From NCBI RefSeq assembly GCF_029227855.1, contig NZ_CP074357.1: 64,000 nucleotides of DNA. The stretch is one strand, 5' to 3'. The DNA comes from Escherichia coli (GTDB lineage Bacteria; Pseudomonadota; Gammaproteobacteria; Enterobacterales; Enterobacteriaceae). This document shows, piece by piece, positions 48,001 to 54,000 of this stretch (positions are counted from its first letter, which is position 1; the number at the start of each line of letters is the position of its first letter). Made by a program: the position numbers.

Positions 48001-51000
48001 TACTGATGAAAATGGCGAAACAAAAACGTGGACTGGACAGGGCCGTACCCCCAAAGCTCTGGCAGAACAAATTGCAGCCGGTAAAAGTCTTGATGATTTC
48101 CTGATCTAACTTTTGCCACCAGTTTTGATAGAGGCCACTTCGGTGGCCTTTTCTCATACGGAATCAATTTCAGGTACAGAACATATGAAAAATTCAGAAC
48201 CTAAGAGCTGTGATCCCTATGTGGACAGTTTGATTAGAAATGCAGATGCAAAGGAAGCCAGGGCATTTCTCAAAATATTGAAGCCCTTACCATTCCTTAT
48301 CGTTATCATCGCTGTATTCTTTTTTTGGGTATCGTTTTCCCGTTTATTATCCCAGGTCGCGTAAAACCTTTTTAAAGACTCTTCTTTACCAGATATGCTC
48401 CCTCACCGGGATGGTTTCAACCTCTTCAGTTTCCCATATTGGCAAAACCGTCAGGAAATAAGACGATACCCTCCACGCTTTCCATTAAAGCGGGATGACG
48501 ACGCCCAGTTCTTACGACCAGACTCCACGTTTTCGATAAGGATGCCTTTGGGCCCTTCTAACGAGGCCACCTCAACAACCCGCACTTTCCGGATCAGTCT
48601 TGGATCCACTTCTTCCCAGATCTGGCCAACTGTAATTTCTTTTTGGGTTTGCATTTAATCTCTCGCTGTCATTTAGTGAACAAGACTAATCCTCGCCGTG
48701 GTTCAGCTTATGGCTTTATTTACGCTGACGATCCTTAGCCTTAAATTTTTGCCATCGTATCCGAAGGTTTTCGATGTTAACCGGAACCTGCATGCGTGTC
48801 GTCTCTATCTCATTCCCATGCCATTTCAGGAGATCATCATCCAACTCCCGGGCCTCCCGGCTGAAGTAAATTTTCATAGTGTCAGGGTTTATGGCGCAAT
48901 GGTCATTGTCGAACAGTGTATGGATATCACGGCGAAGTAAAATTCCGTTCGTTACGTCGGGAATGCCTTCTTCATGACGTGGCGTTAAGTGCGCGGCCTC
49001 AGTACGCCAGGGGGACCTTACGCCGGTGACAACACATCGCCCGTAGCAATTCAACCTAACATCCCGGGCGAAAGGACCTTGGTCAGGACTGGTGACAGAA
49101 GTACATTCCTGGCCCTCTTTGTAGATACGCTTCGGGAAGTCGATAGTGGTTTGAGCTGTTTGGGAAAGTGACACATACGTAACCCCTTTGTATCTCTTTA
49201 TCCCACCATTAAAAGTGGTAGGAATCGAGCTGGTTATGGCCACCAGTTTCACATCGCCCATTTCGACGATCTTAAGGCTCTTATTAGCGGCTACATGTAA
49301 CTGGATGAATTTACCTACGTACACATCATGGTTCTCATCTTGTCTTTCAACACACAGAACGACATGGTCGAAGGTTCTCTTGTCAGAGATTACCCAGTTG
49401 CCGGTTTTCACACGGCCTGCTTCACTCACCCCTGCGGTAAGATCGGGTATGAGCGTCCCCTGCATGCCGTCAGTTCGAATTGAAAGAATTTCACCCGATA
49501 AACCCAGCTCTGCAAGCTCACTAATAAACGGTCTTTTCATCCGGCTTACCGGTTTTGGCTTCGTCATTTTCATCTTTGCTGTAGCACCTCAGTACCCCAT
49601 TGCTCGTTCCTGGCGGGACAGCCGTTCATCAGCAGCCTGAAGACGCTCATCACGCCGCCGTGCTGCCAGAACCCGTCGTTCTGAAAAAGACATAGCCGCT
49701 ACGTTTGGTACGCTGAGCTTACCGTCACCGGCACAAACGTTACAGCGAACATCAAATGCTCCGGCAAAATACTTTTCACGCATTTCTGGCTCCCACTCAG
49801 CCATTTCTGATTGGGTGAATCCATTTTCAAAGGCCGGGTTTTCCATGGTCCCGTGGCCTTCGCACTGGTGACAGATTATGTACTTAAATTTGCGCATGTA
49901 ACGCTCCTGTATATGATGGATGAACCACTCTCGTTCAGGGTTATGGCGAAATGTTTATCGCCGCAGCGAGAGATTCAGTCTTGCTATCAATATTCCTGAA
50001 GGTTGTCCGCCTGATTTCAGGGTAAGCATTCATTCACTGGCCGGTTCTACCTTATTATTCATACAGATTAAAGTAGTTGTGCCTGCTACTGCGGTCACCT
50101 TCCTTGACAAAGTAAGCAAAGTTTGAAAAATTTAACACCGACGAAAGGCCATACCTTCGTTAGTGTGCGAAAGCCGCTTGCGAGCGACGGAATAGGTGAA
50201 AGCTTTAGTCAGGGTTAATTACCCTGTCTGCGGTGATGGGATGGCTCAGGCGTATATCATCACTCCTTCCAAAGTCCGTACACACTCTTTCAGCCTTTGC
50301 AGAAATGCAGGGGCTGTTTCATATCAGACAAGCGCAATGAAATTTTCAAATGCTTTCCAAAAATTCAAAGGCCTTAAGCTTTATCTGTATCTTACGGTCC
50401 CCGCACGGAAAGTAACTTTCCTGAACAGAAACCGCCTTGCCAGCCTTAACTTTCTAAACGGTTAAAGTTACACCAGGCTGTAAATGGTGAAACAGTTTTT
50501 GAAGCCCATGAAACACCGCTGTCGGAAAGATAACTAGCCCCAAGACGTCTAACTTCTTTTTGATGTAGAGCTAATTCTTTCGGATCGGCAATATCTTCCA
50601 CCACGCTCATCATGGCCATCTGAACTCCGGGAGATGCCATTTTATAAGCTGTCGAGCTTGCAACTGAATTTTTCAGGATTGCCACTCTTTCTTTTTCTGG
50701 TCGTCCATTGTCAGACGTATTCGCATAAGTTGTACCGGCAATCAACAACGGAAGGCTGGCATTGGCACAGAAATGCATAACGCGTTTTTGCTGGAGCTGT
50801 AATTCAGTGGCTGCAAATGCTTTACCACATCCGAGGATTCCCAGAATCATAATTAAAGCTGTTTTATTCATAAAATTAAAACCGTCCTTTTTAGCTCTTT
50901 AACTGTTGCGGTTATCTCGGTGTGGATATTTCTGAAGTGTATGATACCCACTTACCTGAGACTGCCAGTATACTGGCTCAGGTATTAAACCTAAGAGGTC

Positions 51001-54000
51001 TGGTGCACCGGTTTTAACCTTTTCATTTCGCTTTTATCTTGTGCCAGGCTCTTGAGTCAGAATTTAAAGGTTTGTGGCATGCAGGTTTTACTGCCAGGTT
51101 TAGGCACAACCTGGCTGTCACCCTTCATTGGTCCTGAGCAAGGCCCTGGTATTCTGCCCAGCGTACGGCCAGCCGCTCTAAGTCCAGATCGTACACCAGC
51201 GGTGTGATTTTACGGCCTTCAAACAGCTCGCCCACCTCAATGCCTGGCTTAAAATGAACGGTCAGGGTGGCCGGATCTATGCCCATAAGATCGGCATCAA
51301 ACAGCGCATGCATTGTTGGAGTCATCAGGATGCCATTAGACGGATTGTACCGGGTTCCATGTTCAATGTGTGCCGCATCCAGGACACCTCCATTAACCCA
51401 ACCGGTTACCGCACAACGGCCTGCGAAATTCTCGATGAGCAGAGCTTTGAATTTACCCTGTGCCACGCCACTACGTTGCGTCACTACGCGCTCGCAGTGC
51501 TCACCCTGGATATCTACGTCAGGTTTCCGAATTGGCTCGCTGGTGGCCGTCTCAGCTTGTTTTAGGGTGGAACGTGGATAGGCCAGGTTATATGCTGCGC
51601 CTGTGGTCATTTGCTCGATGACCGCAGGCGCATAACCTTCTGCTTCCAGCTTACGATATGCAGCCCGGTAGTCTCTTTGGGTTTTCAGCGGGTAAATCTT
51701 CCCGCCTTTACCATCGAAAGCGATAAACCAGAAATCGTCCGTGCCAGTTTCAAGATTTCTGCAACGTTTCAGATGCCATCCGCCTTCTCTCGCCCAGATG
51801 GTACGGTTATTTCTGGCATTCGTTTTGTCATACCCGTGCTCGTCAAGCCAGCTATCAAAGCTGGTCAGCCCCAGGTCCTGAACCTCCAGAGAAGGTACAC
51901 GAATGACCTGCAAGGTATGGCGTGGTCTTGGCTCTCTCATCTTGATCTCTTCCTAGCGCTGGTCTGGGAAATACGGATATTGCGGGCCATATTCATAATC
52001 ATGCGGGCCTGGCTCAACTTCCCAGAATGGACGGCCGCTAATTGTCTTTGGACCGCGCTCGTTTACGATGTCTTCTACATCCTGAATATTAAATGGCATC
52101 GTTGCCAGTAACAGCTGATCTTCGGGTGTCAGCGTCACAGTTGCACCGTCGATACGGCTGTAAAGGTCGGCAAACTGTTTACCTGCACCGTGCAACCGGT
52201 GCTCCGCTACACTTCTGATTGCGTGTAAGTCCAGCTCCGCCGCTTCCATGCGATCCACGTATAGTTTCATTTCTTTACGCAAAGCGCTCAGCTCACGGGT
52301 TTTAATAAATCCGTAGGCGTACCCACCCAGGGCGATAACTGCAATGATTGCTAAAATAGCCATTTATTTTCTCTTACGTTACTGCGGCCGCCGCTTTAGT
52401 CTTAATGTGAAGCCTGGGAATTCGCTGAATGAAGAATACGTTTTCACCCCCAGACCGACAGCTGTTAAGGCGCGATCCCAACACTCCATTTGTAAGTATC
52501 AGGCCCATCTTCTCCGCTGGTGGCATCAGCTACAATCTGTGCATAACGTTCTCCAGCAAGTTCTCTTACCATCTGATCCACGACCCATTGCAGATGATGC
52601 ATTTCATCGGTTCCGCCGTAACGACAAGCCAACTCAATAGCCCGCTCTATTCTTTTTTGTTCTTCAGTCATACTGAATCCTCACGCTTACATCAGCTATT
52701 CTGAAAACATGCACACTATAAATTGCGGCTGTCATTTCTCAGCCAGGCGCCTGCATTGCTGCCTCATTCCATCAAAAATACTTTCCGCAAGCTGCTGGGG
52801 GAACTGGTCCGGAAGAAGCCCGCTAACACGTTCAATGACACCCGGGGTTCTGGCGATGATTTCCTCTATCATCGCCTCTGTCTGCTGTTTACTCAGGCCG
52901 GTTATCTCACCATGCCTGATCCAGTGGCGTCGTTGTATTCGATATATCTGGTAATAGTTGCTACTGCCACGTACGGCCATCGCCAGTTTGCACTTCTGCC
53001 AGGATATCTGATTGTTCCCATGACCGATCACCGGCCATGCCGACAACACATCATAGTTTGGTGTAAGGTGATAACGTCCCTGTGGCCCAATAGAAATACT
53101 GAAATTTTTAGCGTGGCCATCTGTTGCGGCCATCATCCAGAAAATTATCTGCGTCATAAAAAACTGCGCTTTGTCACGCTCAGCACGGTCTGAATTACTC
53201 AGAACCTCCATAATTTCCGATATACCTGGCCCGCCGTCCGCCTGATATTTTCGTAATGGCGAAACGCCCAGGGCCTGACACATATCCTCCTGGGGTAAAC
53301 GAATGATCCATTGTCCGTCTCCTGACCATTTTCGGTCAAAACGTTCTACCACCAGCGCTTTCTGATCTTCAAAGTGAGCAATCTGCGTTCTTGCCACGGG
53401 GAGCCCGTACTGGCCGAGAAGTACCGAGCAGAGCCATTCATTTTCAACCGACGAGCTCATGTCGGCTTTCATGTTCCCCACAAGTCCGAGCGGTAGCTTG
53501 AATATATGCGTCGTTGGTGTATTACCCTCCGGCATACACCACCGATCTTCATGCCACAGTAGGGCTGTTTTCTCCTGAGCACCGGCAATAGATAAACGTA
53601 AGTCGTCGTTATCTTCTGGCCTGCCCGGTAGCAATGTCTCCGTGGTATTACGCAAAGTTGCCGCAATTTCTGATTCAGTAAGCGGGTGATACTTCACGGA
53701 ATATAAATCAGTGGGTTCATCTCCGTCATGAAGCAGCTGTATCGCGCCCACGCAGTCTTTTCCCAGCTCCGTCAGCAGATCAAAAGGCTCCAGGCTATCG
53801 GCCTTGTAACGCATTGCCAGACGTCTGCGTATGCCTTCGCTGTCCGGCAGTAAATTATCAAAATAGTCACGTACCACATTTCCACGCCAGACCTGGTTCC
53901 CGGGAGTAAAAGGAAGGGACAATGACAGCGGCCTTCCCTGTTCGTCAGCAACCCATTCAGGAAGGTATTCTAAGCTGTCTACCCCTTTGCTTTTTTCCCA

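Follow-up and report, generated by a model that had tools for sequence, protein, structure and literature searches.

Two HNH_2 proteins of the IncHI plasmid backbone as candidate type IV-like nucleases with unrelated N-terminal domains

The window, a 64,000-nucleotide stretch of an Escherichia coli contig (NZ_CP074357.1), contains two HNH_2 modules and no others, both encoded on the minus strand: HNH-A (48716..49573, 285 aa, identical to WP_000784387.1) and HNH-B (51125..51940, 271 aa, identical to WP_001572439.1). By analogy with characterised relatives, we suggest, with a probability of about one half, that they are two independent single-polypeptide type IV-like nucleases of the HNH_2 family (PF13391; COG3440, 'predicted restriction endonuclease'). 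The existing annotation of both genes is only 'HNH endonuclease signature motif containing protein', and literature searches yielded no study of them. An IncHI2 HNH gene is mentioned in one paper, merely as a landmark near mcr-1.

The two genes lie in the accessory part of the conserved IncHI2 backbone, flanked by hipBA and ter on one side and by a convergent hns-family gene on the other, and this stretch is carried by more than 1,100 sequenced plasmids. The order HNH-B, HNH-A, convergent hns is common to IncHI1 and IncHI2. In the window the hns-family gene is represented by its 3' part (47753..48109, plus strand; 74–76% identity to plasmid H-NS proteins over their last 99 residues), the 5' end being replaced by IS26 sequence (ORF 47058-47780). 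Downstream of HNH-A is a 67-aa ORF (WP_001194555.1; 48451..48654, minus strand), which is kept in plasmids lacking the 5' half of HNH-A. Between HNH-A and HNH-B lies SP141 (50446..50871, minus strand, 141 aa), predicted to be secreted or to be a lipoprotein. Its N-terminus is hydrophobic and signal- or lipoprotein-like, and by tblastn the protein is almost confined to IncHI2. No RNA family was found in the region with Rfam, and the promoter and terminator scans stayed at the background level. The surroundings have the character of a hot spot for defence or accessory genes: hipBA is present, a helicase cassette is inserted in sister plasmids, and homologues elsewhere adjoin restriction–modification, HEPN/Toprim and Lamassu-like genes and integrases.

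The initial annotation had described the two proteins as paralogs sharing the C-terminal half, each preceded by a small gene. All the ORFs are present, and the paralogy was confirmed both by BLASTP (31% identity over 134 C-terminal residues, E 3e-12) and by comparison of the family profiles (probability 99.3%, E 2.9e-20, 114 columns), the latter aligning the C-terminal halves only. The HNH_2 match covers residues 180–229 in HNH-A (E 3.3e-12) and 176–222 in HNH-B (E 1.5e-6). Thus HNH-A consists of an N-terminal domain (about 14–140), a linker (about 140–175) and the nuclease with its tail (about 176–285), and HNH-B of an alpha/beta N-terminal domain (about 1–125), a linker and the nuclease with its tail (about 150–271). 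The similar C-terminal tails, LRIRWQKF in HNH-A and LAVRWAEY in HNH-B, are aligned profile to profile. The same C-terminal module is attached to other N-termini in enterobacterial proteins of 424–537 aa, in a third IncHI2 paralog and in Salmonella phages. The 537-aa protein of K. michiganensis, considered as a full-length relative of HNH-A (30% identity), proved to be related in the C-terminal half only.

The motif residues noted earlier are conserved in the family alignments: C180, H195 (of AAH), N209-G210, H218 and F221-D222 in HNH-A, and C176, H191, N202-G203, H211 and D215 in HNH-B. The putative catalytic residues, H195/N209/H218 and H191/N202/H211, respectively, are invariant or nearly so and align with ASH, NG and H..FD of VcaM4I, which is the sole PDB relative (6yex) of both family profiles (E 1.4e-5 for HNH-A and 2.3e-7 for HNH-B). 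The matches take in the linker-proximal 'QxxF' helix, which precedes the HNH domain, as well as the HNH core. They are produced by the family profiles only; PDB searches with the single sequences of HNH-A and HNH-B gave no match. In the AF2 models pLDDT is below 50 across residues 184–205 of HNH-A and 123–203 of HNH-B; the beta-beta-alpha-metal fold of the core is implied by the homology to 6yex. The H-N-H triad is intact, and neither a loss of the catalytic histidine or asparagine nor membership in a known non-defence family was observed. HNH homing endonucleases, which sit in an intron, an intein or a host gene and typically carry DNA-binding modules of the HNH_3/NUMOD/AP2 type, were considered and rejected, as both genes stand free within an array of genes and their sole Pfam match is HNH_2.

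The N-terminal domains were supposed to be unrelated, and indeed no alignment between them is produced by hhalign, even profile to profile. The domain of HNH-A is a beta-rich 'SGxW' domain in which G-x-W is invariant and further hydrophobic residues are conserved. This family, which as judged from sequence is previously undescribed, includes separate proteins about 115 aa long, encoded by diverse bacteria, and fusions to HNH_2. The model of the domain is close to the AFDB models of the stand-alone homologues (TM 0.81–0.82). The initial annotation had named SRA-, PUA- or YTH-like folds as those to look for in the N-terminal domains. The model of the HNH-A domain has weak PUA-like fold matches (VcaM4I, TagI, EVE, YTH), but no link to EVE, SRA or YTH was seen by any sequence method, and the enlarged family yielded nothing significant in Pfam or PDB profile searches. 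One family member (P0176) has a nuclease that matches VcaM4I with E 7.6e-17, and hence the SGxW domain stands where EVE would be on a scaffold of the VcaM4I type. For the N-terminal domain of HNH-B neither a relative nor a fold match could be detected, and the domain was found only within its own family.

It is possible, although we regard it as tentative, that both domains are new classes of DNA-modification readers, an SGxW beta-domain and an alpha/beta orphan, and that the IncHI plasmids thereby carry two restriction enzymes of novel specificity, directed for instance against the hypermodified bases of phages. The less likely alternative is that the domains sense something else, be it a protein of the phage, a small molecule, or a particular structure or sequence of DNA, and then trigger nonspecific cleavage; the proteins would be abortive-infection or sequence-specific nicking enzymes. 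Indeed, neither domain is homologous by sequence to known readers of modified bases, that of HNH-A exists as a stand-alone protein, and the type IIS enzymes HphI and AlwI also belong to HNH_2 (PMC5714182). However, a type II mode lacks its cognate methyltransferase: none is annotated between the ter operon and hns of IncHI2, and none is present in the list of the window ORFs. Besides, the HNH-A domain weakly resembles the PUA-like readers in its model and takes the place of EVE on the VcaM4I-type nuclease.

The comparison with modification-dependent restriction enzymes had already been made in the initial annotation, and it agrees with the swapped N-terminal domains, the intact H-N-H, the kinship with VcaM4I and the lack of an annotated methyltransferase, the last feature having been argued to be a sign of modification dependence (Lutz et al. 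2019, PMC6765204); the part that is not supported is the organisation in two-gene modules. If HNH-A and HNH-B are type IV-like restriction enzymes, each would join an N-terminal domain of its own for specificity (a 'reader') and a linker to a common beta-beta-alpha-metal nuclease bearing a C-terminal extension. By analogy, the nuclease halves would dimerise, and the N-terminal domains would bind some feature that marks DNA as foreign. The most likely mark is a modified base that Dam+/Dcm+ enterobacterial hosts lack, for example 5hmC, glucosyl-5hmC or a different hypermodification of phage DNA. Once bound, the enzyme would be licensed to cut both strands nearby, and the host of the plasmid would be protected from phages or rival mobile elements. 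Since the N-terminal domains differ, so would the targets of the two enzymes. The Dam+/Dcm+ hosts of the plasmid constrain any methyl-dependent specificity.

Another unlikely possibility, on a par with the sensing of a different signal, is that the proteins process plasmid DNA and have no role in defence, acting in conjugative transfer, recombination, or exclusion of and competition with related plasmids. Their conserved place beside hns in the IncHI1 and IncHI2 backbone is consistent with that, as are the third HNH_2 paralog, situated directly after traG in IncHI2, and the purifying selection on HNH-B, which has dN/dS 0.07 relative to the IncHI1-type ortholog, both domains being constrained. 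The shared arrangement with hns and the selection on HNH-B also fit the type IV-like reading. On the other hand, HNH-A is often disrupted in plasmids that retain the conjugative classification, the nearest relatives among characterised proteins are restriction enzymes, and the same module occurs in lytic phages and in integrase-borne islands.

The small upstream genes require separate consideration. ZnF102 (49589..49897, minus strand, 102 aa), directly upstream of HNH-A, contains the two expected CxxCxGxG motifs, one at residue 9 (CHQCEGHG) and the other at residue 52 (CNVCAGDG), and belongs to no significant Pfam family. TM136 (51953..52363, minus strand, 136 aa), directly upstream of HNH-B, has the expected membrane anchor, a segment at residues 2–20 that is strongly hydrophobic in the hydropathy profile, and likewise no Pfam family. 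The 12-bp gap between TM136 and HNH-B (51941-51952) is as described, whereas the one between ZnF102 and HNH-A is 15 bp (49574-49588) rather than 16. Shine–Dalgarno-like sequences lie within or at the stop codons of the ORFs upstream of both nuclease genes, and ZnF102 is probably co-transcribed with HNH-A.

These tight gaps, suggestive of co-transcription, would fit toxin–immunity or toxin–antitoxin modules, in which an HNH toxin or abortive-infection effector is curbed by ZnF102 or TM136. The adjacent hipBA, the toxicity of the isolated HNH domain of VcaM4I (Pastor et al. 2021, PMC7897488) and the p632-mcr-type plasmids, where ZnF102 and the N-terminus of HNH-A have been lost in one deletion, point in the same direction. 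However, the adjacency is not conserved across homologs, and the role of the small proteins as regulators or immunity partners, proposed initially, is thus not upheld. In IncHI1 the small genes upstream of the HNH-A and HNH-B orthologs are unrelated to ZnF102 and TM136, and a 41%-identical HNH-A ortholog (locus L004) directly follows terF, with no small gene between them. The ZnF102 homologs (48% identity) carried by Klebsiella IncFIB/HI1B and Moellerella plasmids are not adjacent to any HNH gene. All tblastn matches of TM136 have at least 90% identity and come from IncHI2, with no homolog outside IncHI2 among the plasmid records; upstream of a 42%-identical HNH-B homolog (P0036) TM136 is absent, and the preceding gene is an HTH gene at about 320 bp (318 bp). 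Finally, metagenomic members of the families, mostly on contigs of 1–1.6 kb that are too short to tell much, have no tightly linked upstream gene. This suggests that ZnF102 and TM136 share transcription units with the nucleases as neighbours specific to a lineage, not as required partners, and makes the toxin–immunity scheme improbable.

HNH-A is often disrupted. In many IncHI2 plasmids it is truncated to the HNH half, with ZnF102 also gone and a helicase cassette alongside, and in IncHI1 its first 72 or so residues are missing; hence HNH-A is dispensable. In IncHI2 plasmids other than that of the window an insert of about 4.4 kb, encoding a 99-aa ORF, a UvrD-like helicase with GajB-like PADLOC matches and a 328-aa Cys-rich protein, is situated at the junction 50125-50132 (blastn of locus L013 against the window), within the 548-bp intergenic region between SP141 and ZnF102 (49898..50445). 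For HNH-A dS is saturated, and hence no dN/dS value is available. That both genes are decaying backbone remnants without function, as might be thought from the common truncated copies of both and from the shortened HNH-A of IncHI1, is improbable too, given that the ORFs of the window are full length, identical to the commonest alleles and intact in the catalytic residues, and given the low dN/dS of HNH-B.

IncHI2 plasmids rank among the main vehicles of mcr-1 and further resistance genes in E. coli, Salmonella and Enterobacter. If HNH-A and HNH-B are active modification-dependent restriction enzymes, they would form plasmid-borne barriers to phages and mobile elements, and phage therapy and plasmid competition could be affected. 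Their N-terminal domains could represent novel readers of modified DNA, which might serve as epigenetic tools like other modification-dependent restriction enzymes. As neither small upstream ORF is a conserved partner, experiments are simplified, since each nuclease can be tested alone.

Among the known systems, PADLOC-DB v2.0 yields no system-specific match, only the generic 'HNH' models hitting the nuclease part (E 7e-4 and 2e-8). Five small ORFs have no PADLOC match, and PADLOC, NCBIfam and PHROGs name no system for either the nucleases or the small ORFs. The C-terminal module of about 130 residues, nuclease plus tail, is shared with the phage proteins of phrog_23050, phrog_20585 and phrog_21425 (E down to 1.5e-37; 32% identity, E 9e-27), an example being the 232-aa protein of Salmonella phage 7-11 / SeKF_80. 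The PHROG proteins differ from HNH-A and HNH-B in the N-terminal regions and, being uncharacterised, add no functional information. Unlike TagI (SRA-HNH) and the ScoMcrA-type HNH type IV enzymes, HNH-A and HNH-B have no detected SRA or SBD domain; in NCBIfam nothing exceeds the cut-off for either protein, the scores in this comparison being 17 and 14 bits, far below the required 180.

The closest relation is to VcaM4I and TspA15I, EVE-HNH modification-dependent (type IV) restriction endonucleases with a homologous nuclease half (PDB 6yex; PMC6765204; PMC7897488). In contrast to these, HNH-A and HNH-B have N-terminal domains not detectably EVE by sequence, form a nuclease subfamily with its own C-terminal tail, 'TLTVHF...RW..F', and are carried on IncHI plasmids. 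Their layout is the one seen in VcaM4I, TagI and similar type IV enzymes that depend on DNA modification, and HNH-A and HNH-B are most likely stand-alone type IV-like nucleases, new members of an already known kind.

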